Of a stretch of DNA of 64,000 bases, positions 3,452 to 64,000 are shown piece by piece. The position numbers and the translations under genes are program-made. The DNA is from Nitrospirota bacterium (GTDB lineage Bacteria > Nitrospirota > UBA9217): assembly GCA_963737155.1 (NCBI GenBank), contig CAVTRN010000002.1:2368001-2432000 (forward strand), in the 5' to 3' direction. How positions within the stretch are numbered: position 1 is the stretch's first letter; each line of letters opens with the position of its first letter. The notes beneath the pieces were generated by a model, which saw only the letters and a list, made by a program, of their open reading frames with translations, did no database searches and was not told the DNA's origin.

Positions 3452-4930
3452 TCAGGATTCACTGCTTTTGGGACACGGGAATACAATGGTAAAGCTCGCT
3501 CCTTTGCCGGGAGCACTCGTCACGGAAATCTCTCCGTCGTGCTGTTCGATAATCCGTTGTGTTATGGACAGCCCTAAACCTGTCCCCTGCGGACGAGTCG
3601 TAAAGAATGGGCTGAATATGCTGCGCAAGTGCTCGCTGGAAATTCCCTTTCCTGTATCACTGAACACAATCCCAACTGATCCGGATTTCTCACCGGCCGA
3701 TTTGTTCGATTTTGTTTCCACCATAAAAGTTCCTCCATCTGGCATTGCCTGTATGGCGTTCAAAGCAATATTAATGAGGGCCTGCTGGATCAAATCTGGA
3801 TCAAGCATCAGCCAGGGCAGTCCCGGCGCCAGCTTACGTTCAACGGAAATGGCGTTCTTCGCGAACTGCGGTGCGAGAAAATCGAGCAGTTTCCCAATGA
3901 GATTATTGATGTCCACGAGAGTCATTTTGGGATCAGGCGGCCTTGAAAAGGCGAGTAGATTTCTGACCGCCTTGTCCATGCGATCAACCTGGGAAAGCAC
4001 TTCACCGAGTACTGCTCTCTTCTGTTCGTCGATGGCCGGTTCCTTCCTGAGCACCTGAATCACGCCTGCGATGCCGGCTAACGGGTTCTTTATCTCGTGG
4101 GCTATTCCCGCAGCCATCTCGCCAATTGATGCAAGACGGTCGGCCCTTTTCATCTGCTCGTAATGATATCGCTCTACTCTGCGCCGGGCTCGCTCCAGTT
4201 TGGACAGGAGCGAGTTGAAGGCTTCACCCAGCCTCCCGATATCATCGGAACTCTTTACCACAACCCGTGCCTCGAGACCGCGCTCTGCGCGCTCCATAGT
4301 GGCAATCAGTTCCTGAATGGGTTTCGTGACGAGATGGGTCAGGAACAACGACAGCGACACCGCCAGAATCGCTGCAACACCCAAAGCCCAAAGAAACATG
4401 GTTTTGCTGAGTTCACGCACGTTCTCCTGTGTCTGCGTCATAGAGACATCAATGGCAAGTATGCCGTTTATTTTCGCTTTCGAGCCATGGCAGTGATAAC
4501 AGCGTTCCTCGTTATGAATCGGGATAAGAACCGAGAAAACGCCTTCATCCCGTCGTTTAATCGGTTTTTTGAACTGGTTTAAGAGAAACCACATTTCCGT
4601 AGCTGCATCGACTTTTCTGCCGATCGTCCAGATTTTCGACGACTTCAGAATTATCCCGTTCGAACTGAATATCTTCACTTCTTTGATGTTGTGATAATCT
4701 CCCACGGCGCTGAGGATATGCTCTACCTCATTGCTTTTTCCATCCATCATGGCGCCAGCGAGACTGCGTTCTATGGTATTCGAAATAATAAGTGCGTTAT
4801 CCGCAAGCGCTTCTTCCAAATGCGCCTGCTGATACCCGATGTTGATCCACGTTCCAAGACCTATCGTTACCGCAAGAATCGCGGAAACGGCTATGATAAT
4901 CTTGCTTTTGAGGCTGGAAATGATCCTCAA
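3452..4930 (-). CDS. Membrane sensor histidine kinase with periplasmic CxxCH heme-c motif and HAMP domain
   Basis: Two TM segments, periplasmic ERCYHCHG, HAMP, H-box AHEIKNPL, N/G1/F/G2 boxes. TTG start overlaps the pyrD stop. Confidence 0.92.
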   Translation of the reverse strand: MRIISSLKSKIIIAVSAILAVTIGLGTWINIGYQQAHLEEALADNALIISNTIERSLAGAMMDGKSNEVEHILSAVGDYHNIKEVKIFSSNGIILKSSKIWTIGRKVDAATEMWFLLNQFKKPIKRRDEGVFSVLIPIHNEERCYHCHGSKAKINGILAIDVSMTQTQENVRELSKTMFLWALGVAAILAVSLSLFLTHLVTKPIQELIATMERAERGLEARVVVKSSDDIGRLGEAFNSLLSKLERARRRVERYHYEQMKRADRLASIGEMAAGIAHEIKNPLAGIAGVIQVLRKEPAIDEQKRAVLGEVLSQVDRMDKAVRNLLAFSRPPDPKMTLVDINNLIGKLLDFLAPQFAKNAISVERKLAPGLPWLMLDPDLIQQALINIALNAIQAMPDGGTFMVETKSNKSAGEKSGSVGIVFSDTGKGISSEHLRSIFSPFFTTRPQGTGLGLSITQRIIEQHDGEISVTSAPGKGASFTIVFPCPKSSES

Positions 4931-5862
4931 CCGGTTTCCACCTTCCCAATGAGGGAACTAACCCGTCCATGTCCCTGTTCCGCCATGAATTTCTCAATGT
5001 CGGACAGCACATCCAGGGTCGCACGGGGGTTCATGAAATTAGCAGTTCCGACCGCAACTGCCGATGCTCCGGCTAATATGAATTCCATTGCATCTTCTCC
5101 CGATATGATACCGCCCATGCCGATGATCGGAAGCGGGACCGCCTTTGCCGCCTGCCAAACCATGCGCACGGCAACTGGCCGGATTGCTGGTCCCGAAAGC
5201 CCCCCCGTGCAGTTGGCGATGCGCGGCCGCCGACACCGCACATCGATCGCCATGCCGAGGAGCGTGTTAATGAGCGACAAACCATCGCATCCCGCATCAT
5301 AGGCTGCCCTGGCGAATTCTGTAATATCGGCAACGTTCGGCGAGAGCTTCGCGATAACCGGAAGCTTCACAGCTTTTCGCACGGCCGACAAGAGTTCGAA
5401 CGCCGCCTGGACGTTCGTGCCGAACACCATGCCTCCCGCCTTGACATTGGGGCAGGAGATGTTGACTTCCAGGCCGTCTACACCAGGGACACCGTCCAGC
5501 CTCTTCGCGACGCCGACGTAATCCTCAAGACTGTATCCGAATATGTTCACGATTACCGCAGTGTCGAATTTTCTAAGATAGGGCAGCTTGTCGCGCAGAA
5601 AAACATCGATACCGGGATTTTCGAGGCCGATTGCGTTTAACATACCTGATGGCGTTTCCCAAATACGGGGTGGTGGATTCCCCTTGATCGGGTTCATCGA
5701 TATACCCTTAACGATGATACCGCCTAGTTTGTTAAGATCCACGAACGCCGCATATTCCTCGCCGTACCCGAAGGTGCCCGACGCAGTGAGCACGGGGTTC
5801 TTGAGCCTAATTCCGGCGAAATTTATGGAGAGATCCGGCTTTATATTTAATTTAGCTGCCAT
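4927..5862 (-). CDS. pyrD: Dihydroorotate dehydrogenase (class 1B) catalytic subunit
   Basis: NPVLTASGTFG, NAIGLENPG, EVNISCPN, KLSPN, GGLSGPAIRP. The ORF-track extension to 5901 lies in an IS-derived end. Confidence 0.95.
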   Translation of the reverse strand: MAAKLNIKPDLSINFAGIRLKNPVLTASGTFGYGEEYAAFVDLNKLGGIIVKGISMNPIKGNPPPRIWETPSGMLNAIGLENPGIDVFLRDKLPYLRKFDTAVIVNIFGYSLEDYVGVAKRLDGVPGVDGLEVNISCPNVKAGGMVFGTNVQAAFELLSAVRKAVKLPVIAKLSPNVADITEFARAAYDAGCDGLSLINTLLGMAIDVRCRRPRIANCTGGLSGPAIRPVAVRMVWQAAKAVPLPIIGMGGIISGEDAMEFILAGASAVAVGTANFMNPRATLDVLSDIEKFMAEQGHGRVSSLIGKVETG

Positions 5863-6262
5863 ACTTACCCGGCCATACGCGGCCCCCCCGGTTTTAACCA
5901 TGGGGTTGAATTCGGGATCTTAACAACTGATACTGGACAAATAATATTTCTATTGTATTCGGCCTCAAGAACAAGCATGACGTCCAGTCCTATGCATTCA
6001 GCCATCATGTCAAATCTGTCGAATCATCAAGAAAATCCGCAGCAAAGACTGACGGTCCGTCCGCATTGTGCTGAAAGGACGACCCAAAATAAAGTAAATG
6101 CACAAAATAGGCACCGAATCTGCTGATATGCAATCGGTCCTTCTACTGCCGTCGCTGTGCCGAATTCTGATGCTCTGCTAATCCCTTTTTCCCCTGAGAT
6201 TAAGTGCTCTGCTCGTTGCCAGGGAGATTGCTGGTATTGCCGTTAGAACCACCTGTCTTTAG

Positions 6263-7570
6263 GATAATCCGCGCGGGAAACCCCACATTCTTTAGCGGTG
6301 GGATGAAAGCGAGCTGTGTTAAAAGTGCTAATTTTTGCCAAAACAACATATCTGTGACCTATTTTTCAGAAGTGAGAAAAACGTTCAAATTTAAGCTTTA
6401 CCAGTCGCGCAAGAATCGATACCTGCATCGGCAGATTGATCTGGCAGCGAGCATATACAACCACTGCATCGCATTGCACAAACGGTACTACCGCATGTTT
6501 GGCAGGCACCTGAACGTATTTGCCCTGAAAAAACACATCACTAAGATCAAGCACTTCGATAAATACATCCACTGGAACGCTCTCGGGTCTCAAACGATTC
6601 AAGACGTTGTTATCAGAATCGACAAGGCGTACCAGAACTTCTTTCGATCCCTCAAAACGAAGCGTCGGGGTAAAGTTTCCACTCCCGGCTTTAAAAAGCG
6701 TCGACGGTATAAGTCGTTTACGTTGACCCAGGCCGGATATAAGGTGCTCGAAGGCAACCGCATCCGAATTGGGGAAAAGATATTCAACTACCACAAGCCC
6801 AGAGAGATCGAAGGCATCATAAAGACGCTCACAATCAAACGCGACGCACTGGGGGAGATATATCTGTTCTTTTCGTGTGACAGGATACCAGAGACAGCAG
6901 TACAAAATCGAGTCATGACGGGTAAAAGCGCAGGCTGCGATTTTGGGCTGAAACGGTATCTTACACTCAGCAATGGCAATTCAGTCGAGTCTCCCCATTT
7001 TTTCAAGGGTGGCATCAAGAAGGTCAAACAAGCTAACAAAGCATTATCCCGCAAAAAGAAAGGCTCAGAAAACAGGAGCCGGGCACGAAAGGATTATGTC
7101 CGCGCACACCGTAAGATCGCCAACCAGCGACTGGATTTCAGCTTCAAGCTGGCCCGCGAGATGGCGATAAAGCATGACTACCTGTTTTTCGAGGACCTCA
7201 ATATTGCGGCCATGAAACAGCTTTGGGGCCGGAAAGTATCCGACCTTGGTTTTGCCGACCACCTGATAATTCAGGAACACATGTGCCGGAAGCTCGGATC
7301 GACGTTTGTAAAAATAGCCCGATACTACCCGTCTTCCAAACAGTGCCACAAATGCGGCTGCATCAACAAAAATCTGGAGCTTCGAGACCGCACTTGGATC
7401 TGTCCGACATGCGGCGTAAAGCACAATCGCGACGGCAACGCGTCAAAAGTGATTCACATGGTTGGGGCGTCCGACCATTGGGAGAGGAGCAATAAGACTG
7501 CTTGTGTCGTCAGCAGCAGCTCCGCCAGCATCCCAGAATCCCACATGCTTTAGCGGTGGGAGTACGTCAA
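6263..7570 (+). mobile_element. IS200/IS605-family (IS1341-type, tnpB-only) element
   Basis: Near-identical subterminal hairpins CCCACATTCTTTAGCGGTGGG (6282-6302) and TCCCACATGCTTTAGCGGTGGGA (7539-7561). The right hairpin is preceded by GAAT and the element ends in TCAA (7567-7570), as in the IS608 right end. Confidence 0.88.
6372..7553 (+). CDS. tnpB: RNA-guided endonuclease TnpB
   Basis: GTG start VRKTFKFKLY, RuvC residues GCDFG / FFEDL / NRDGNA, zinc ribbon CHKC...CPTC; catalytic triad intact. Confidence 0.93.
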   Translation: MRKTFKFKLYQSRKNRYLHRQIDLAASIYNHCIALHKRYYRMFGRHLNVFALKKHITKIKHFDKYIHWNALGSQTIQDVVIRIDKAYQNFFRSLKTKRRGKVSTPGFKKRRRYKSFTLTQAGYKVLEGNRIRIGEKIFNYHKPREIEGIIKTLTIKRDALGEIYLFFSCDRIPETAVQNRVMTGKSAGCDFGLKRYLTLSNGNSVESPHFFKGGIKKVKQANKALSRKKKGSENRSRARKDYVRAHRKIANQRLDFSFKLAREMAIKHDYLFFEDLNIAAMKQLWGRKVSDLGFADHLIIQEHMCRKLGSTFVKIARYYPSSKQCHKCGCINKNLELRDRTWICPTCGVKHNRDGNASKVIHMVGASDHWERSNKTACVVSSSSASIPESHML

Positions 7571-7613
7571 GCATTGGGAGTGGTTTGACAGTCATTCCCC
7601 TTCTTGCTCCTAT

Positions 7614-8435
7614 CTACTTTCTACTGCCTGTTAGCTTCACCGCCACCTGCTCGCTCCACTCGATGTCCTGCGAAGCAAACACGGGCCCGTCTTTGCATAC
7701 CCTTTTGTAGCCGCCTATTTTCATGGTAACAGAACAACCCATGCATGCCCCAACTCCACAGGCCATGCGTTCCTCCATGGAAACGAAGCAGGGCAGTGAA
7801 TGTATTGAGGCAATTCTGCTTACAGCGCTAAGCATAGCATGGGGACCACACGCGTACAGTACTAAATGAGTTTTCCGCTCCATCGTAGTCAGAAACGCAT
7901 TCAGGAGGTCCGTTGTCATCCCCTGTTTTCCCGCGCTTCCGTCCTCCGTGGCAAGATGCACTTTCACCGCCGTATCGCGGAAACTCTTCACAATCCCGGC
8001 AGGTGGCAGACAATCCTTGTTCCTTGCGCCAATAAAGAGATGAGCGCGGAACCCTGCTTTGACAGAAAGAAAATGAAGGGGAGGAAATCCGCTTCCGCCG
8101 GCAATGAGCACCGGAGTCACGCCTTTTTCCGGCAGCGGAAATCCGTTACCAATCGGTCCGAGCAAGTGCAGCGAATCCCCCACCCTCCTTTGCGTCAGCA
8201 GCGAGGTTCCCCTGCCAACAACGCGATAAATAAGCTCAAGGGACGATCGTGAAGGAAGAGAAGATATACCGAAGGGCCGTGCCAGGAGAGGGTCCATGTT
8301 CTCCGATACGCGGAGCATCACGAACTGGCCCGGCAGAGCGACCGCGGATATATCCGGAGCTCGCAGCACAAGGCGATAGTATCCCCTGCCCACGGATTTA
8401 TTGACAAGAATTGTTGCCTTGCTGAACCTACTCAA
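7614..8435 (-). CDS. pyrK: Dihydroorotate dehydrogenase electron transfer subunit
   Basis: PGQFVML, RPFGI, GPIGNGF, YACGP, EERMACGVGACMGC...VCKDGPVF (2Fe-2S). Probable TTG start at 8435. Confidence 0.93.
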   Translation of the reverse strand: MSRFSKATILVNKSVGRGYYRLVLRAPDISAVALPGQFVMLRVSENMDPLLARPFGISSLPSRSSLELIYRVVGRGTSLLTQRRVGDSLHLLGPIGNGFPLPEKGVTPVLIAGGSGFPPLHFLSVKAGFRAHLFIGARNKDCLPPAGIVKSFRDTAVKVHLATEDGSAGKQGMTTDLLNAFLTTMERKTHLVLYACGPHAMLSAVSRIASIHSLPCFVSMEERMACGVGACMGCSVTMKIGGYKRVCKDGPVFASQDIEWSEQVAVKLTGSRK

Positions 8436-8910
8436 AGGCAATCTGAATCTCCCGGATTTCGTACTCGACTGTTTTGGCCGGGGTCTTGATCGTAACGCTA
8501 TCACCGACCTTGTGGCCGATAAGCGCCTTGCCTACCGGTGACTGTACAGATATTTTGCCCTTTTTGAGATCGGCCTCTTCCTGACCCACCAGAGTGTACT
8601 TCCTTATGTCTCCGGAATCGGTGTCCGCAAGCGTGACCGTCGCTCCAAAAACGACCTTTTCGTTCGTAAGCTTCGAAATGTCGATGATTTGAGCGTTGGA
8701 AAGCTTATGCTCTAGTTCCCGCTTCTTGGCGTCAAGATGGCCCTGCCGCTCTTTGGCTGCATGGTATTCCGCGTTTTCCGATAAATCACCATGAGCCCGC
8801 GCTTCCTCGATATCTTTTATATTCTTGGACCGTTCAACCTTGATGATACGGTCAAGCTCCTGTTTTAGCTTGTCATAGCCCTCTTTGGTCATCGGAATCT
8901 TCTGCGTCAT
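8428..8910 (-). CDS. greA: Transcription elongation factor GreA
   Basis: [31 protein letters not shown]. Confidence 0.97.
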
Positions 8911-11900
8911 GGTTTCTGATACTCCTGAATGGATTTAACTTGTATCGGCCGCGTCTTGATGGCCGAGATGCCCCGCACTGCCGCTTTTGCCGCAGATATG
9001 GTCGTAAAATAAGGGACCCCCTTGATCAGGGTCGTACGCCGTATCGAATAAGAATCTATCTGCGACTGAGCTCCATGGACCGTATTAATGACCAGGTCGA
9101 TCTGCATATCCGTGATCTGGTCCACGATATGCGGCCTCCCCTCGGTCACTTTATTCACCGTCTCGACCGTAATGCCCCGTTTCCTCAAATAGTCTGCAGT
9201 GCCGCGTGTGGCAACGATAGTGAAACCGGCGTTTTCCAGCCCTTGGGCGACTTCCAGCAAACCAGCCTTATCCTTATCTTTCACGCTCAGGAATACACGC
9301 CCTGAAACAGGCATAGGGTTGCCGGCCGCCATCTGGGACTTGGCGAAGGACATGCCGAAATCCGTGTCGATGCCCATCACCTCGCCCGTTGATTTCATTT
9401 CCGGCCCCAGCAGCGTGTCCACGCCCGGAAACTTCGCGAAAGGAAAAACTGCTTCCTTTACCGCGATGTGTTTGATGCTCACTTCTTTTGTAAAACCAAG
9501 TTGCACAAGGGTCTTACCGGCCATGACCCGGGAAGCGAGTTTGGCGAGCGGCACCCCAATCGCTTTGCTCACGAACGGTACGGTACGCGAGGCCCGGGGA
9601 TTCACCTCAAGCACGTAAACCCGGCCCTCCTTCACGGCAAACTGGATGTTCATGAGCCCGACGACACCCAGTTCAAAGGCGAGCACCCTCGCTTGCCTGT
9701 CGATTTCCCCGATGATTTCCGGCGAAAGAGAGAACGGCGGCAACGAGCAGGCGGAATCGCCGGAGTGGACACCCGCCTCTTCGATATGTTCCATGATCCC
9801 CGCCACGACCACGGTTTTCCCGTCGGAGATAGCGTCCACGTCTATCTCCACGGCATCTTCCAGATACTTGTCGACGAGCACAGGCCTTTCCGGTGAGGCC
9901 TTCACTGCCCGGCTCATATAGTTCCGGACGCTCTCCTCGTCATAGACAATCTCCATGGCCCGGCCGCCGAGCACGTAGGACGGGCGCACCATGACGGGGT
10001 AACCGATGCGGTTCGCCGCGAACACTGCCTCGTCGCAGGACACAGCCGTGCCGCTTTCGGCCTGCAAGAGACTGAGTTTGTCGAGCAATTCCTTAAACCG
10101 CTTCCGGTCCTCAGCACGGTCGATGCTGTCAGGCGTAGTACCAAGAATGCGGACGCCCTCTTTCTCAAGCGGTACTGCGAGCTTGAGTGGCGTCTGTCCG
10201 CCGAACTGCACTATCACGCCCACGGGCTTTTCTCGCTGTATAATATGTAAAACATCTTCGAGTGTCAAGGGTTCAAAATAGAGGCGGTCGGACGTATCGT
10301 AATCCGTGCTCACCGTCTCGGGGTTGCAGTTCACCATGATCGTCTCAAACCCGTCTTCCTTGAGCGCGAAGGCGGCATGGACGCAGCAGTAGTCAAATTC
10401 GATGCCCTGCCCGATCCGGTTCGGCCCACCCCCAAGGATTACAATCTTCTTCCGGTCAGTCGGATTCGCGTCGCATTCAGCATGTCCTTGTGCTATGCTG
10501 CTTGCCACCTGACCCTTGATTGTATAAAACGGTTTTTCATAGGTTGAATAGAGGTACGGCGTATGCGCCTCGAACTCAGCCGCACAGGTATCCACACTCT
10601 TGAAGACCGGCGTAATGCCAAGCTCATAGCGAACTCTACGCACCGTCTCTTCCGTGGTCGTCAGAAGCTTAGCAATCCTGCGGTCGGAAAATCCGTATTC
10701 CTTGGCGCGTCTGAGGGGATGATTTAGTGATGGCGTCCGGTCATTCAGAATATTCGCCGCCTGCTCCTTCAGTTCCTTTTCACGGTCGACAATCTGTTTG
10801 ATCTGATGGAGGAACCATGGGTCAATCTTCGATAAACTGAATATCTCCTCTACTGTCATGCCCATGCGAAAACCATCGGCAATGAACCATGCCCGTTCCC
10901 AGTTCGGCACACTGATCTTCTGGCGAATATCGGCGACTTCGTTTTCCCTGTCTCCATCACGATCCCGGCGGGACTCCAGTCCGTAGCGGTCAATTTCGAG
11001 CGAACGGAGCGCCTTCTGGAATGATTCCTTGAAAGTCCTGCCTATGGACATTGCCTCACCCACTGATTTCATCTGCGTTGTAAGCGTGGCGTCCGCCTGA
11101 GGGAATTTCTCGAAGGCAAAACGCGGGAACTTCACAACCACGTAATCGATCGTCGGTTCGAAAGACGCCGGCGTTGCCTTAGTGATATCGTTTGTGATTT
11201 CATCGAGAGTGTACCCGACCGCGAGTTTAGCGGCGAACTTGGCTATTGGAAAACCCGTGGCTTTGGACGCAAGCGCCGAACTCCTGGATACACGCGGGTT
11301 CATTTCAATCACTACGATCCTACCGTTGTCGGGGTTTACGGCGAACTGAATATTTGAGCCGCCGGTATCAACCCCTATTTCACGGATGATCCGGAGCGAT
11401 GCATCGCGCATAATCTGAAATTCTTTGTCCGTCAGTGTCTGTGCCGGGGCCACGGTGATACTGTCACCGGTGTGGATGCCCATAGGATCGAGGTTCTCGA
11501 TGGAACAGACGATCACGACATTGTCCTTGATGTCCCGCATGACTTCGAGCTCGAATTCCTTCCACCCGACCACAGACTCCTCGATCAACACCTGGTGAAC
11601 CGGACTGGCCTCGAGACCGCGCGAGATCAGATCATTGAACTCCTCCCGGTTATAGGCGATGCCACCGCCCGTGCCACCGAGCGTAAAAGCCGGGCGCAGA
11701 ATCGCGGGAAAGCCAACGTTCTCCAGGATTTCCAGAGCCTGTTCCCTGCTTGTCGCAAACCCGCTCTTGGGCACATCAAGCCTGATGTGTTCCATGGCCT
11801 TCTTGAACAGCTCCCGGTCTTCCGCTTTCCTGATCGACGGTAGTTTGGCGCCAATCAATTCGACATTGTATTTCTCCAGGACACCAGACTCCGCCAGAGC

Positions 11901-12200
11901 CACGGCCATATTGAGAGCGGTCTGGCCACCCATCGTGGGAAGCAGTGCATCGGGACGTTCGCGATCAATGATTTTTTCGACCACTGCCGTCGTGATCGGT
12001 TCGATGTAGGTACGGTGCGCCATATCCGGATCGGTCATGATCGTGGCTGGGTTCGAATTGACAAGCACGATCTCGTATCCCTCCTCCTTAAGCGCTTTGC
12101 AGGCCTGTACGCCCGAATAATCGAACTCGCAGGCCTGACCTATCACGATTGGCCCGGCGCCTATGATCAGGATCTTATTGATATCTGTCCGTTTCGGCAT
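8907..12200 (-). CDS. carB: Carbamoyl-phosphate synthase large subunit
   Basis: [24 protein letters not shown], duplicated ATP-grasp domains, MGS domain. Confidence 0.98.
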
Positions 12201-12229
12201 TTAATCCTTCCTCAATTCTGTACTTTAAA

Positions 12230-13168
12230 TCAGTCAAATTCCTGTATCCAGCCGTTCTCCAAACCATACTGTTCCATGATCCGGCGAGCATCTTCGTATT
12301 CGTCGGCTGTTGTTCTGCGTGAAAGTTCCTTGATCTCAATCGCCTTGTATGCCGGAAAGTACTGGGCCATAAGACTGATGAATATGTCCTTCGAGATTTC
12401 CTTTGACAGGAATTTCATAATGTTTTCTGTTCCCGACAAACCATTGGGAAGCACCAGATGGCGGATAATCAGTCCGCGTTTCGCAATTCCCTGCTCACCT
12501 AAAAGGAGATTGCCCACCTGTCTGAACATTTCCTTCACCGCTGCGCGGTTGATCTCCGGATAGTGCGAGGCATTCGAGTATTTTTTTGCGACTGCCTCAT
12601 CGGAATACCGCATGTCTGCCAGGTAGATATCAACAATCCCGTCTAGAATCTGAAGTGCCCTAAGCGACTCGTATCCGCTCGTATTATATGCTATAGGTAG
12701 GTTGAAACCTCGTTCCCGAGCAAGCCAAAGCGCCTTCAGAATCTGGGGCATAAAATGCGTCGGTGTTACTAGATTCACATTGTGACATCCCTGTTCCTGT
12801 AGCCAGACCATCTGGCAGGCAAGCTCGCCGGGAGTCCGCTCCGAGCCGTTCCCCAGTTGACTGATGGGATAATTCTGACAATAGATGCAGCGCAGATTGC
12901 AGTTGGTTAAAAAGATCGTACCGGAGCCTTTTGTTCCTGATAGGGGCGGTTCCTCGCCATGATGAGCACTCACGCTCGATATTACGGGATTAAGACCAGA
13001 CCTGCAAAATCCAAGTTTGTCGTTATTAAGCCGGTTCGCGCCGCATTCACGGGGACAAATGCAACAACTCCCAAGGAGCTCGTAAGCATCATTAATACGT
13101 TCGCTTAATTCAACCTGCGATAACAAGGAATTCACCCGAACATCCCAATAGCAAAACCCATAGTTCAA
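12230..13168 (-). CDS. Radical SAM protein (PflX-like)
   Basis: CNLRCIYCQN (CxxxCxxC), N-terminal CCICPRECG, HHGEEPPLSG, RHLVLP. Confidence 0.88.
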   Translation of the reverse strand: MNYGFCYWDVRVNSLLSQVELSERINDAYELLGSCCICPRECGANRLNNDKLGFCRSGLNPVISSVSAHHGEEPPLSGTKGSGTIFLTNCNLRCIYCQNYPISQLGNGSERTPGELACQMVWLQEQGCHNVNLVTPTHFMPQILKALWLARERGFNLPIAYNTSGYESLRALQILDGIVDIYLADMRYSDEAVAKKYSNASHYPEINRAAVKEMFRQVGNLLLGEQGIAKRGLIIRHLVLPNGLSGTENIMKFLSKEISKDIFISLMAQYFPAYKAIEIKELSRRTTADEYEDARRIMEQYGLENGWIQEFD

Positions 13169-13175
13169 AACAGCA

Positions 13176-14306
13176 TTATTGTATGTTCCTGTACTTTTCC
13201 ATCATGTCAATGAACCGTTTGAAAAGATATCTGCTATCATGCGGTCCCGGAGATGCCTCGGGATGATACTGCACCGAAAAAGCCGGAAGGGTTTTATGCT
13301 GAATACCTTCGCAGGTCTTGTCATTCAGATTCATATGCGTCATTATCACGTGGTCCTTCACCGTGTCCATGTCCACCGCAAAGCCGTGGTTTTCGGCGGC
13401 GATCTCGACCTTGCGCGTAGTCAGGTCCATGATTGGCTGGTTTCCGCCGTGATGACCGAACTTCAGTTTGTAGGTCCTGCCGCCCAGTGCAAGACCTAAC
13501 AGCTGCTGCCCCAGACAAATGCCGAAGATCGGTTTCCTGCCTAGAAGTATCCGGATGTTTTCTATTGCATAGGTGACCGGCTCCGGATCGCCAGGACCGT
13601 TTGACAGGAATACTCCGTCGGGGTTCATGACAAGCACTTCTTCAGCCGACATCGTTGCCGGCACTACAGTTACGTCGCATCCCGAGCTCGTGATCAGCCG
13701 GAGAATATTCCTCTTGATTCCATAATCATAGGCGACAACCTTGTATTTCTGCACAGACTTTTTCGTCGCGTACCCTTTTTCAAGGTCCCAGTCGCCCTCC
13801 TCCCAACAATAAGGTTCCTTGCAGGTGACGTCTTTTACCAGGTCGAGGCCGCTCATGGTGGGGAGCGCTTTTGCCTTCGCAACAATACTGACAGGATTCA
13901 TGTCCTTCGTCGTAATCACCCCGGGCTGTGCTCCATTGTCCCGAAGATGTTTCGTCAGTGCTCTTGTGTCGATTCCCTGGATGCCGACGATGCCGTTCTC
14001 GCGCAAATATTGATGAAGGGTTTTTTTCGAACGCCAGTTGCTGGGGATTTCAAGATATTCCTTCACAATGAAGCCTTCCACGAAGGGTTTTGCCGATTCC
14101 ACGTCCTCATCGTTCACGCCGTAGTTCCCGATTTGGGGGTAGGTCATGGTTACAATCTGCCCCTTGTACGATGGATCGGTCAGAATTTCTTGGTATCCTG
14201 TCATACTTGTGTTGAATACGATTTCTCCCGAGGTTTCCCCTTCCGCTCCAAAGGATTCTCCTTCGAACACCGTTCCATCAGCCAGAGCAAGTATCGCTTT
14301 TTTCAT
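13176..14306 (-). CDS. carA: Carbamoyl-phosphate synthase small subunit
   Basis: [39 protein letters not shown]. Confidence 0.98.
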
Positions 14307-14467
14307 AATCAGTTAGACTCTCTCATTCCGAAAATTTCCAATCACCCCACAGGCGGGGAGTGCCGTGAACCGCCATCAAAACCGGCACCGAACCTTTCCG
14401 CCACTATCCACGACCATCGCACGTACATTTTCCCCTGCTTCTTCTTCGCTTTTTGCTTACCACTTAA

Positions 14468-14847
14468 TCGGGCCATCCGCAAAGAGCTCTGGTTTTAACC
14501 ATGGGGATGAATGCGGGAACGTAACGACCGATACTGGACGAATGCTCCTCTTCATGCTTTGTTCCACGCCCGGAGCACGAAACTATCACAAACATGGACT
14601 GTGCGGAAACACAAAGAAAAAAACATTAAAGAACCGTTAGCGTGCATGCCAGAAATGCGGGACCAACGGTCAACGTAATTTTTTTTCCGCATTATCTGGC
14701 GAAGAATGCAACAATACGAACCAGAGACAGAGTTGCGACCCCCCGTTAAACGTCAACACTAATCAAGCTTGGCAATAAATTTCCGTTGCCATGTAGATTG
14801 CTAGTGCTGCCGTTAGAACCCCTGTCTTTAAACATGGACAATGGTCA
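14468..14847 (+). mobile_element. Non-autonomous IS200/IS605-derived element, copy 2 (uninterrupted, ~380 bp)
   Basis: Left end GGCCATCCGC..GGTTTTAACCATGGGGATGAATGCGGGA..GATACTGGAC and right end GATTGCTAGTGCTGCCGTTAGAACCCCTGTCTTTAAACATGG match copy 1. Lies between pyrC and carA. Confidence 0.75.
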
Positions 14848-14854
14848 TGCGGCC

Positions 14855-16117
14855 CTAAATGCTTCCCCCCAAAATCGTCTGCACAGCCCGTCCCCTCAAC
14901 TTCCACCCATTAAAAGGCGTGTTCCTTGATTTCGACTTGAACTCCGACACGTTCACGATCCATTCTAAATCCGGATCGATGATCGTGATGTCGGCCGCCG
15001 TTCCAACTGAGAGCGAACCTTTATCGATTTTAAGAATACCGGCGGGGTTGGCCGTAAGTTTCCGGATTGCCTCGGCAAGCGTCAGAATGCCTTCCTCGAC
15101 GAGTTTGATCGTAAGTCCCAATGCTGTTTCAAGTCCCACGATTCCAAAGGGCGCATAATCGAATTCACCATCTTTTTCATCCGCTGCATGGGGCGCATGG
15201 TCCGTGGCGATCACATCGAGGGTGCCATCCCTAAGTCCCTGCTTTATAGTGTCGACATCGGCAGCCGTGCGAAGCGGTGGGTTCATTTTTGCCATGGTAT
15301 TGTAACCCCGCACCGCCTCATCAGTCAAAGAAAAGTAATGCGGACAGGTCTCGGCGGTGACCTTAACTCCCCGCGCCTTTGCATTGCGAAGCATGTTCAC
15401 CGAACCGGCAGTGCTTACATGGGCTATATGCAACCTGCATCCGGTCAATTCGGCAAGAGCAATATCCCGCGCGGTCATAACATCCTCGGCCGCCCGCGGA
15501 ATACCCCGAAGCCCCAGTTCCGTTGAGATGATGCCTTCGTTCATCACGCCCTTGGCTGAAAGCGTGGTTTCTTCGCAGTGCGAGATGACAAGCATATCGA
15601 ATATTTTCGAATATTCCAGAGCGCGGCGCATTACTGCCGCATTCATGACCGGCTTTCCATCGTCCGAGACGGCGATGCAACCCGCCGAGCACAGTTCAGC
15701 CATTTCAGCAAGTTCCTCGCCTTTCGACCCCTTGGTTATTGCGCCGACAGGATATACCCTCGTCAATGCATTTCGGGTTTTAGAAAGGATGAACTCCGTA
15801 ACCGAGCGGTTGTCGTTCACCGGGTTCGTATTCGGCATGCAGCAGACCGAAGTGAACCCTCCGGCCTTTGCCGCAGCTGTACCGGTGGCGATGGTTTCCT
15901 TGTATTCGAAACCCGGTTCTCTCAGATGCACGTGCATGTCGATGAGACCGGGGACAACGATTTTTCCAACAGCGTCGAGGACCTGTGCACCGGTCTCCGA
16001 AATCGATCCCTGCCTGCCGAGTCTGGCGACCTTCCCCCCGGATATGAGGAGATCAAGTACGCCGTCGACATTATTCGCGGGATCGATGATACGGCCATTT
16101 TTTATCAAGATGTTCAT
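14855..16117 (-). CDS. pyrC: Dihydroorotase
   Basis: [38 protein letters not shown]. Confidence 0.97.
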
Positions 16118-16181
16118 AGCTATTCAACAGTGGAGGCCATGAGTCGGCATGCACCTGCCTCTAGCTCCCAACCCCTTTCTT

Positions 16182-17111
16182 TCAAGCTTCCGCCTTCGTG
16201 CCTCCGGACAACAAGAACATCACCGCCATGCGGACCGCAACGCCGTTCGTTACCTGATCGAGAATGACCGGCGTGGCATCGGCAACCTCGGATGATATTT
16301 CTACTCCGCGGTTCATGGGGCCCGGGTGCATTACGAGTGCATGACCGGCCGCCCTGGCTCGCCTTGCGGTATTTAGACCGTACAGCCCGGCATACTCGCG
16401 TACACCAGGGAAAAGTCCGGCAGCCTGCCGTTCCAGCTGGAGGCGAAGCATCATAACCACATCTGCTCCCTCAACGGCCCGGTCCATATCATAGGTGACA
16501 TCTACTCCCAGATATTCCATGCCTGGCGGTATCATCGTGGGCGGCCCGCAGACCCGCACTTTCGCGCCCATTGCAGTAAGTCCGTAGACGTTCGACCGCG
16601 CCACCCTGCTGTGTGCGATATCTCCCACAATGGCAACAGTCAGCCCCTCCAGTCTGCCCAACTTTTCCCTAATGGTGAACATATCGAGCAATGCCTGGGT
16701 CGGATGTTCATGAAAACCATCTCCCGCATTGATTACCGCACTTTTCAGCATTTTGGATAGATACTCGGGCGCCCCAGAACAGGAATGGCGGACGATGATG
16801 ATGTCGCACTTCATGGCTTCAATGTTCCTGGCTGTATCGAGAAGAGTCTCACCCTTAACCACACTGCTGGTCGATGTTGAAATGTTGATCACATCGGCTG
16901 AAAGCCGTTTGCCCGCAAGTTCGAAGGATGTCCGGGTCCGTGTGCTGGCCTCATAGAAGAGGTTGATAACCGTCTTACCGCGCAGCGCCGGTACTTTCTT
17001 AATGTCCCGCTCAGACACGTCCTTGAATGTCGCAGCTGTGTCTAGAATAAGCTTGATCTCATCCGCCGTCATTCCTTTCATGCTGAGCAGATCTTTTGTT
17101 CTGAGCGCCAT
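16182..17111 (-). CDS. pyrB: Aspartate carbamoyltransferase catalytic subunit
   Basis: [25 protein letters not shown]. Confidence 0.97.
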
Positions 17112-55598: not shown

Positions 55599-56133
55599 AA
55601 TAACCCCGCAGCAAGCTGCGAGGCATTTTGACTAGAATCTAAAACCTATTTGCTCATCATGCTGATACCGAATATAGTTTCTAATCACTTCCGCCGTTAT
55701 TTTGTCGCCAACCGAACGGACAAAGTAACCATCGTTCCACAGTTCCCCTCCCCAGAGCTTTTTCTTTATCTCCGGGAACTCTTGGAACATTATTCTGGCG
55801 GAGATACTTTTAATCATTTGTACTACCTTCGCAGGCGCATACTTCGGAGGAACAACCAAAAACAAGTGTACATGGTCATCCATGACTTCCATCGTATCTA
55901 TTTCCAAATCGTACTGTTCAGCTATCTCACGAAAGATTTCTTTCAATCGTTTCGTCATCCGAACGTCGAACAGTTTTTTACAATATTTCGGTATCCATAC
56001 GAAATGGTACTTGAGATCATAGACACAATGTCTGCTTCTTCTCAATGGGCTCATGACCCGTATTGTATCAGAAAATCATCCTGACTTCGTCAGGATATCC
56101 TTTTCATCCCAGCAGCAAGCTGCTGGGTATTCA
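55599..56133. mobile_element. IS200-like element
   Basis: tnpA flanked by related hairpins CCCCGCAGCAAGCTGCGAGG (~55604-55623) and CCCAGCAGCAAGCTGCTGGG (~56108-56127); the latter is followed by TATTCAA. Confidence 0.85.
55632..56054 (-). CDS. tnpA: IS200/IS605 Y1 (HUH) transposase
   Basis: YHFVWIPKY, DHVHL (HUH), KSISAR, LWNDGYF, YIRYQ (catalytic Tyr). Confidence 0.95.
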   Translation of the reverse strand: MSPLRRSRHCVYDLKYHFVWIPKYCKKLFDVRMTKRLKEIFREIAEQYDLEIDTMEVMDDHVHLFLVVPPKYAPAKVVQMIKSISARIMFQEFPEIKKKLWGGELWNDGYFVRSVGDKITAEVIRNYIRYQHDEQIGFRF

Positions 56134-63831: not shown

Positions 63832-64000
63832 CAAATACCTCAGCTGAACCCCCCTGGTTTCGACTAGTGGGGGTGAATGCGGGATCTTTAATGTTACTAA
63901 ACATTTATTCACTTCCATGATATACTTAAGGTAACAATGTAGCAAATCTTCAATTGTATCTTTCATCCACGGTTTCAATTCATAACGACTCCTAAAGACA
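63832..64000 (+). mobile_element. Left end of a third IS200/IS605-derived element (runs off the window edge)
   Basis: Follows TTAC (63828-63831). CCCCCTGGTTTCGACTAGTGGGGGTGAATGCGGGATCTT parallels the left ends at 5885 and 14490. Confidence 0.65.

Follow-up and report, generated by a model that had tools for sequence, protein, structure and literature searches.

A tnpB-only insertion sequence inside the right-end palindrome of a second TnpB element in a Nitrospirota genome

Analysis of a 64,000-nucleotide stretch of a Nitrospirota genome (G000:C2:2368001-2432000, termed the window; host genome G000, 4.84 Mb) identified an insertion sequence (IS) of the IS200/IS605 type that carries tnpB only (6263-7570, plus strand, 1308 bp) and that lies within the right-end palindrome of a decayed element belonging to another family of TnpB ISs. 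The intact element and its relatives are referred to as family 1, and the interrupted element (relic A) and its relatives as family 2. The arrangement is best explained by one nested insertion followed by ordinary guarding of the donor joint by TnpB, an account which we regard as highly probable. Comparisons were made with the two nearest genomes, G011 and G003 (87-88% identity across the flanking genes), with the congener G001, which was the source of diverged family-1 DNA copies and of a family-2 master element, and, for a survey of junctions, with 64 genomes within the order.

The tnpB gene (6372-7553, plus strand) encodes 393 amino acids from a GTG start assigned by homology, and its product matches the Pfam families OrfB_IS605 (7.6e-17) and Cas12f1-like_TNB (1.7e-15). 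Residues 3-361 match the PDB structures of ISDra2 TnpB (8bf8, 8ex9, 8exa and 8h1j; E=5e-41), with D190, E274 and D354 aligned to positions 191, 278 and 361 of 8bf8_A, which we take to be the RuvC catalytic residues of ISDra2 TnpB, and both CxxC pairs of the zinc finger are present (C325/C328 and C344/C347). With the RuvC triad and the zinc finger conserved, the protein appears to be intact and is presumably active. The tnpB stop codon (TAG, 7551-7553) is at the same time the TAG of the TTTAG loop in the right-end palindrome, and coding sequence, presumed omegaRNA scaffold and transposition signal overlap down to the final tnpB codon.

Other TnpB-like genes of the host genome are 27-33% identical to this protein, and a close relative was sought without success in 40 related genomes (best identity 33-38%), in genome contigs (41 loci, best 34%) and in metagenome contigs (best 37%, for the best 80 of 211 relatives). 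As these relatives are too distant to define a target-adjacent motif (TAM), diverged DNA copies in G001 were used for this purpose. Within the host genome itself, blastn with the complete element and nhmmer with its left and right ends returned self-matches only, and nine hairpins, all of them unrelated, were retrieved when it was scanned for a TTTA loop enclosed by a perfect 9-bp stem. G001 holds diverged copies of both family-1 ends, some of which are paired 300-450 bp apart with no gene between them, as well as one family-1 tnpB pseudogene. Two mini-copies of ~50 nt are also present in G001 (L171, ~951-1000, and L173, ~886-935), each consisting of a single palindrome with left-end-like bases on its 5' side and the right-end terminus (...GTGCGTCAA) on its 3' side. 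Separately, a contig from the soil metagenome run X1 carries a family-1 right end (with loose ends at window positions 7514 and 7570) together with the flank of the G001 copy L162, and a G001-like organism therefore co-occurs with the window organism in that sample.

The left junction of the element reads TTTAG (6258-6262, plus strand) followed by GATAATCC from 6263, and the right junction reads GTACGTCAA, ending at 7570, followed by GCATTGGGAGTGGTTTGACA; the flanks share no duplication. The right boundary was placed at 7570 because 13 of 14 G001 right ends stop at the same point, ...(T/A)(C/T/A)AA, with unrelated flanks beyond (terminal TCAA in eight, TTAA in three, TAAA and ATAA in one each), the fourteenth copy (L174) being truncated and kept outside the 13. 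Eight of nine G001 left ends were re-registered by eye against a GCGCG motif, the ninth (L164) being dropped as rearranged, and are preceded by TTTAG (twice), TTTCG, TTAAG, TCTAG, GTCAG, TTACG and TCTTG. The G at position -1 is invariant in all eight and the six remaining pentamers are one- or two-base variants of TTTAG, so that TTTAG is the likely target motif of family 1 and its predicted TAM. Placing the left boundary at 6262|6263 also restores the right end of relic A with no insertion or deletion relative to the family-2 consensus. Terminal inverted repeats are lacking, and imperfect palindromes occur subterminally at both ends: on the left, CCCAC...TTTAG...GTGGG (6283-6304, plus strand) lies ~20 nt from the boundary and is kept in the G001 left ends, and on the right, CCCACATGC-TTTA-GCGGTGGG (7540-7561, plus strand) is followed by 9 nt to the terminal TCAA and is conserved in the 13 G001 copies. 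The latter has a folding energy of -5.5 kcal/mol, a value that 33 of 300 shuffled sequences equalled or bettered.

The DNA into which this element is inserted was delimited by means of the related genomes. In G011 and G003 the distance between pyrK and pyrD is 27-37 bp, and both relic A and the tnpB element are absent. On the left, the alignment (G011 ...CATACTTACAA|GTCATT versus window ...CATACTTAC|CCGGCC) shows that the additional DNA begins after TTAC (5865-5868, plus strand), which is retained in the G011 empty site and constitutes the family-2 target motif, and putative TAM, of relic A. Across the site, G011 reads ...CATACTTACAA|GTCATTTCC and the window, 1.72 kb later, ...GGTTTGACA|GTCATTCCCC, with homology to G011 resuming at 7591 (GTCATT), and the foreign block accordingly spans 5869-7590. 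Relic A amounts to ~410 bp in total, made up of a left part (5869-6262, plus strand), which comprises the left end with its palindrome (~5883-5905, plus strand), a decayed interior and the 5' arm of the right-end palindrome with its TTTAG loop, and of a tail (7571-7590, plus strand, GCATTGGGAGTGGTTTGACA), which comprises the 3' arm of that palindrome and the terminal ~10 nt.

A second family-2 relic, uninterrupted, occurs in the same operon (relic B, 14460-14849, plus strand); it is preceded by TTAC (14456-14459), has a decayed interior and ends in ...CTGTCTTTAAACATGGACAATGGTCATG. The ends of the two relics share 87% identity, over stretches of 53 and 48 nt, and neither relic contains an open reading frame (ORF). 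Relic B is part of a 463-bp segment (14386-14848) that is absent from G003 and G011, where pyrC and carA abut, and both relics thus display presence/absence polymorphism at orthologous spacers of the pyr operon. Some 72 nt (14386-14459) separate the end of the G003 homology from the TTAC and left end of relic B, and no TTAC is visible in the corresponding empty site of G003; these extra nucleotides could represent a longer left-end variant, a co-mobilised flank or a separate small insert.

The nature of family 2 was apparent from G001, where the 32-nt core of its left end occurs with 100% identity at no fewer than 13 places (>=13). The G001 master is 1672 bp long and carries a single ORF of 511 amino acids with a Cas12f1-like_TNB domain (1.1e-8), and relics A and B are homologous to this gene-bearing element at both their left and right ends. 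Relative to a reference copy, seven G001 copies are 97.5-98.4% and three are 83-88% identical. All 11 G001 copies that possess both ends are preceded by TTAC and terminate in ...GGTCAG (master, ...TTTAGACATGGGGAGTGGTCAG; the 11 copies, ...CTTTAGACATGGGG(A/T)(G/A)(T/G)G(G)TCAG), and the tail of relic A (7571-7590) aligns to the right-end consensus of the family, ...TTTAG(A/C)CATGGGGAGTGGTCAG. Because TTAC both precedes the G001 copies and remains in the G011 empty site, family 2 is concluded to insert 3' of this motif. Profile searches retrieved about ten diverged family-2 copies in the host genome of the window, and the family-2 TnpB has nine protein matches there (39-57% identity), eight of which contain stop codons while the ninth is a 35-amino-acid fragment. 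Since only fragments remain, relics A and B are considered to be decayed relics that have lost their core, and the family to be extinct in this genome and alive in G001.

Several further observations concern family 2. At the edge of the window another relic of ~774 bp begins (63848-64000, continuing to G000:C2:2432621) that contains stop-riddled fragments of a tnpB of the 511-amino-acid type and whose right-end loop reads TTTAG followed by CCATGGGAGTGGTTA. On contig C1 of G001 a family-2 copy (L218) is interrupted beyond position 107, where an insert of 1443 bp (269-1711) contains a 450-amino-acid ORF that resembles a DDE transposase; this is another nested IS, and one unrelated to family 1. 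Furthermore, a loop variant in which TTTTAA replaces TTTAG, GTTTTAAC(T/C)ATGGGGAGTGGT, is found at 20 places in G001 (for example C9:354897 and C9:494816); it probably represents left ends or a third sister subfamily, and would offer no TTTAG target.

The ends of the two families proved to be related to one another. When family-1 and family-2 ends were aligned, none of 500 shuffles reached the observed score on the left or on the right; the shared left-end motif, following the palindrome, is ...GGGATGAA.GCG, and the shared right-end motif is AGAA.CCC...CTTTAG...GGGAGT.GTCA(A/G). The TnpB proteins, by contrast, are 25% identical over 112 amino acids (E=3e-4), and judged by the homology of their ends the families appear to be sisters whose TnpBs are barely related. 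In family 2 the arms of the right-end palindrome enclose a TTTA(G) loop, and it is directly after this TTTAG (6258-6262) that the family-1 element sits. If the element is removed, the rejoined site aligns with the uninterrupted right end of relic B (14811-14849) and with eight other genomic copies. This likeness is not attributable to chance, given that the best genome-wide match to TTTAG plus the adjoining 20 nt is itself a copy of the family-2 repeat. A sequence-only reading of this stretch had already described an intact tnpB-only element at 6263-7570 after TTTAG, had proposed that it lay in the end of another mobile element with outer limits at 5869 and 7590, and had matched the rejoined site to a right end at 14815-14845. 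The Pfam and PDB matches and the G001 boundaries bear out the first proposal, the alignment to G011 shows both limits to be exact, and the rejoined site was recovered as described; its suggestion that TTTAG is the target motif agrees with the left flanks in G001, and the 20 nt past the right end, which it took to be IS-derived, correspond to the last 20 nt of a family-2 relic. The same reading noted a likeness between TTTAG+CGGTGGGA, carried at the element's own ends, and the predicted guide, which holds true and is explained by the common ancestry of the end palindromes of both families, the sequences concerned being homologous 3' arms of sister palindromes.

The position of the element has a bearing on the guide that its TnpB would use. 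A predicted omegaRNA scaffold comprises the tnpB 3' end and the right end of the element (7449-7570, plus strand), a region kept in gene-less G001 copies that resemble miniature inverted-repeat transposable elements and that match these ~120 nt at 72-81%. No Rfam match was obtained for the scaffold, and RNAalifold applied to ten right-end regions gave a consensus of -3.06 kcal/mol with no compensatory pairs. In a four-helix model drawn by hand from the window's own sequence, 81% of cells are paired, the covariation score was reached by 14 of 500 shuffles, and five pairs are changed on both sides as against 2.7 +/- 1.3 in shuffles, 46 of 500 of which reach five. The predicted guide, GCATTGGGAGTGGTTTGACA (7571-7590), would be exactly the terminal 20 nt of relic A. 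Both strands of the host genome were scanned for sites that this guide could address (39,632 TTTAN sites, of which 5082 are TTTAG). Among the 5082 TTTAG sites none has zero or one mismatch to guide positions 1-12, one has two mismatches and three have three. The site with two mismatches belongs to a family-2 relic (G000:C2:2182760, minus strand) and differs at four of 16 and seven of 20 positions, and the G001 consensus departs from the guide at positions 1, 5, 15 and 16. The guide being effectively unique in its own genome, no sibling copy is predicted to be a target. A benchmarking paper (PMC12908284, in the part drawn on here) describes off-target sites of TnpB that carry three mismatches, of which one is TAM-proximal, and a 2023 preprint by Meers et al. 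(PMC10055086, likewise in part) reports weak seed dependence of off-target binding; weak action of TnpB on the relic with two mismatches is possible.

In the proposed course of events, IS200/IS605-type elements of sister families inserted twice in succession, each time by the single-strand ("peel-and-paste") route. The earlier insertion would have brought a family-2 TnpB element, or else a short form derived from one, to a position 3' of TTAC in the 27-37-bp pyrK-pyrD spacer, where it would then have decayed to the gene-less relic A. In the second, the family-1 element would have entered 3' of TTTAG in the loop of the right end of relic A. Transcription of the omegaRNA across the right end into the flank would yield a guide consisting of the last ~20 nt of relic A, with TTTAG as the TAM, although both the 3' end of this RNA and the use of the TAM by TnpB are inferred. 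Excision of the top strand by a Y1 TnpA would reseal the donor joint as TTTAG|GCATTGGG (GCATT...), which TnpB-omegaRNA would recognise by the TTTAG TAM and 16-20 nt of flank and would cut, upon which recombination with the sister chromosome would restore the element. Both the donor-joint model and the rule that the TAM equals the target motif follow the Meers et al. preprint (PMC10055086, in part).

The alternative that survives best, though we consider it improbable, is that family 1 is a hyperparasite of the family-2 IS, the loops of family-2 right ends presenting its target motif and its guide directing cuts in sibling copies that lead to homing or to destruction of the siblings, as the sequence-only reading had suggested when it described the nuclease as programmed against a multicopy family. 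The guide does fall where family-2 right ends are most strongly conserved, a family-2 relic provides the best match to TAM plus guide in the genome, 22 identical TTTAG+ACATGGGGAGTGGT loops are present in G001, and the insertion hit one of five TTTAG-bearing family-2 loops; additionally, a preprint argues that TnpB can drive the spread of an IS via multicopy plasmids (PMC11870625 / 10.1101/2025.02.20.638934, in part). Against this stand the lack of any TTTAG site in the host genome with fewer than two mismatches to guide positions 1-12, the four mismatches between guide and G001 consensus, and the decay of every family-2 copy in the host genome. The sequence-only reading had itself named a lack of seed-matching sites elsewhere as an outcome that would refute it, and this is what the scan of the host genome returned, so that a nuclease programmed against a multicopy family is not supported there. 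Repair would pose a further obstacle: family-2 copies share up to 1.6 kb to the left of the cut and nothing past the guide to its right, and because family-2 homology ends where the guide ends, homing into siblings would be without a right-hand repair template, a cut sibling having less than 20 nt of homology on that side.

Recurrent nesting was sought with a junction pattern (degenerate family-1 right end plus family-2 tail, with at most two mismatches) in the 64 genomes of the order, and the window contains the sole true junction among them. The remaining matches to the pattern are uninterrupted loops of the family-2 type (22 identical ones in G001) or chance matches; a match in G047 was discarded as a nested junction since it falls in coding sequence and is a chance match. 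The sequence-only reading had also called for other copies to be checked for location in IS ends, and none of the 13 complete G001 family-1 right ends has a family-2-like flank, a result of little power given that ~0.1 would be expected by chance. Four DNA sequencing runs, at ~2-3x depth, contain the same left junction and neither a joined nor an empty form; these runs may include the source sample and do not provide independent support, and the missing forms carry no information on excision or expression.

A related proposal, to which we likewise attach little credence, holds that the TTTAG target of family 1 is the palindrome loop of the whole IS605-type clade, family 1 included, and that sister ISs are its preferred landing pads. 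Were this the case, an intact family-1 element nested in an active and uniform family-2 population, such as that of G001 with its 22 identical TTTAG+ACATGGGGAGTGGT sites, would possess a guide matching all sibling right ends, and the RNA-guided nuclease of one transposon would serve to parasitise a different transposon family or to police it. In that event the window would be a fossil of such nesting in which only a diverged copy, not toxic to itself, survived, and it is in genomes like G001 that a strategy of nesting in the loops of sister IS605 families would be of consequence.

It is more doubtful still that no nesting took place and that the 1.7-kb block arrived as a composite unit or arose by recombination between the palindromes of adjacent elements. 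The homology between the ends of both families would permit such an origin, and the relic and the tnpB element are both absent from the nearest kin, meaning that the order of their arrival was not directly observed. However, excision of 6263-7570 restores a colinear family-2 right end free of indels relative to the consensus, the block is bounded by the family-2 TTAC on the left and the family-2 terminal 20 nt on the right, and a right-end palindrome split in this manner could not be expected to act as a transposition end, going by the IS608 mechanism as given in part of PMC10055086. Least credible is a domesticated tnpB that is no longer selfish and instead controls the pyr operon, for instance as an antisense element, or acts as a regulator directed by its guide RNA: it is present in single copy, antisense within an essential operon and with no cognate TnpA identified in the host genome, yet its catalytic triad is intact, unlike that of nuclease-dead regulators derived from TnpB, the element retains both of its ends in full, the nearest relatives lack the locus and the guide matches its own flank only.

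A number of points weigh against the preferred account of one nested insertion followed by donor-joint guarding. The left boundary and the TAM depend on diverged G001 copies registered by eye, and covariation support for the predicted omegaRNA scaffold is weak. The predicted palindromes, including the left-end fold, are no more stable than shuffled sequences: for the rejoined right end of relic A, which the sequence-only reading had presented as a hairpin, the folding energy of -3.1 kcal/mol was equalled or undercut by 138 of 300 shuffles, and for the right end of the G001 master (-5.3 kcal/mol) the same was true of 111 of 300. The palindrome as such stands by homology, and the hairpin interpretation is based on likeness to the subterminal palindromes of IS605-type elements, not on folding energy. 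Under uniform choice among the 5082 TTTAG sites, one of the five family-2 loops would be hit with a probability of ~0.1%, which hints at an unexplained preference for such loops, but the host genome contains one family-1 insertion only, and a single event cannot establish a target preference. Finally, a cognate TnpA was sought among the 22 Y1_Tnp matches of the host genome and none was identified; the family-1 element may now be immobile, leaving TnpB with nothing to guard. The dominant IS200 of this genome (nine copies, ~99% identical) has a palindrome, CCCAGCAGC-TTG-CTGCTGGG, unlike that of family 1.

One of the IS200 copies lies in the window, where its tnpA (55662-56027, minus strand) encodes 147 amino acids; the element is ~557-561 bp long, and its nine copies are 98.4-99.3% identical, with the left palindrome given above and a right palindrome CCTCGCAGC-TTG-CTGCGGGG. 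Approximately 30 solo repeats of 73-82 nt, ~89% identical to the IS200 left end, are dispersed on both contigs.

The minus strand of the window carries a pyrimidine operon, for six genes of which Pfam assignments were obtained: pyrB (16182-17111, from the translation read by eye), pyrC (14855-16117), carA (13176-14306), a radical-SAM gene (12230-13168), carB (8907-12200, on the basis of size and position), greA (8428-8910), pyrK (7614-8504; DHODB_Fe-S_bind, 6e-15), which encodes the electron-transfer subunit of dihydroorotate dehydrogenase B and is the operon-upstream neighbour of the insertion, and pyrD (4927-5862; DHO_dh, 8.7e-82), which encodes dihydroorotate dehydrogenase. Two spacers of the operon hold related non-coding inserts on the plus strand, namely relic A (pyrK/pyrD), itself split by the tnpB element, and relic B (pyrC/carA). 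A PyrR attenuator or other described RNA was considered as an identity for these repeats and rejected, as Rfam returned no match at E<=1 over 5000-17000. The listed start of the pyrD ORF at 5901, inside relic A, was also rejected, and translation probably begins at the ATG at 5862-5860, where homology to G011 and G003 places the start; the in-frame ATG at 5901, within the left end of relic A, lengthens the ORF by 13 codons. Relic A was inserted 2 nt upstream of this start codon (minus strand), and together with the tnpB element it moves the pyrD spacer with its likely ribosome-binding site (AGGAAA in G011) 1.7 kb away. Transcription of the pyr operon must cross two antisense IS relics and one antisense tnpB.

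The window provides a cleanly delimited case of a TnpB IS nested in the end palindrome of another TnpB IS, and its history is readable because close relatives retain the empty sites and a congener harbours a living master of the host element. It illustrates that an omegaRNA guide can be transposon-derived merely as a by-product of nesting, and such a guide need not target siblings, since here it has diverged and homology is lacking to the right of the cut. Two uncharacterised TnpB systems are brought to light with inferred TAMs, TTTAG for the 393-amino-acid protein and TTAC for the 511-amino-acid protein, and their homologous ends and nearly unrelated nucleases add an example from nature of ends and cargo being exchanged as modules. 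No new class of biology is opened: the nested insertion is real but ordinary, and insertions of IS605-type elements and their derivatives in one another are already documented. The literature searched, apart from supplements in which comparable cases may stand (PMC3119063 Tables S8/S9 and PMC10055086 Extended Data), yielded no description of a TnpB guide that originates from the end of a different IS.

Among known systems, a plasmid-borne TnpB "gene drive" (10.1101/2025.02.20.638934, in part) offers one parallel, namely the idea that a nested TnpB can cut those copies of a multicopy host replicon that are free of the IS and can spread through recombination. It differs in that the plasmid copies carry the same sequence to the left and to the right of the cut, whereas family-2 copies are homologous on the left only, and in that the family-2 copies of the window genome do not match the guide.

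A further likeness exists to the palindrome-associated transposable elements (PATEs) of Haloquadratum walsbyi, gene-less IS605-type derivatives that keep the near-terminal palindromes and have core deletions reducing them to ~50 bp (PMC3119063, in part). In that genus small mobile repeats insert within near-terminal palindromes, and nesting of PATEs and IS605-type elements within each other is frequent, as tallied in Table 5 of the same paper. Relics A and B, like the gene-less G001 copies, similarly retain near-terminal palindromes of the IS605 type after loss of the core, and the ~50-nt G001 mini-copies L171 and L173 resemble the terminal-only 52-bp PATE versions (PMC3119063). The present case differs in that the host is a bacterium instead of a haloarchaeon and that an intact TnpB element is the invader, and the 2011 paper does not consider what follows for the omegaRNA guide.

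TnpB-only elements of the IS605 type and the logic of their guides are established, and it is among these (IS1341-type elements; ISDra2, ISGst) that the family-1 element finds its nearest counterparts. It shares with them the RuvC triad and zinc finger, as seen in the match to ISDra2 TnpB, subterminal palindromes at both ends, the lack of inverted terminal repeats and of a target duplication, a short AT-rich motif just 5' of the insertion and, by prediction, a guide taken from the 3' flank. Its layout also parallels that of IS608, in which both ends bear a palindrome, the left one 20 nt away from the cut and the right one separated from TCAA by 9 nt. The element of the window stands apart in that its TnpB is only ~30-37% identical to anything found in two large contig collections, that its target is TTTAG, and that the flank which would supply its guide is the end of another IS605-type element.

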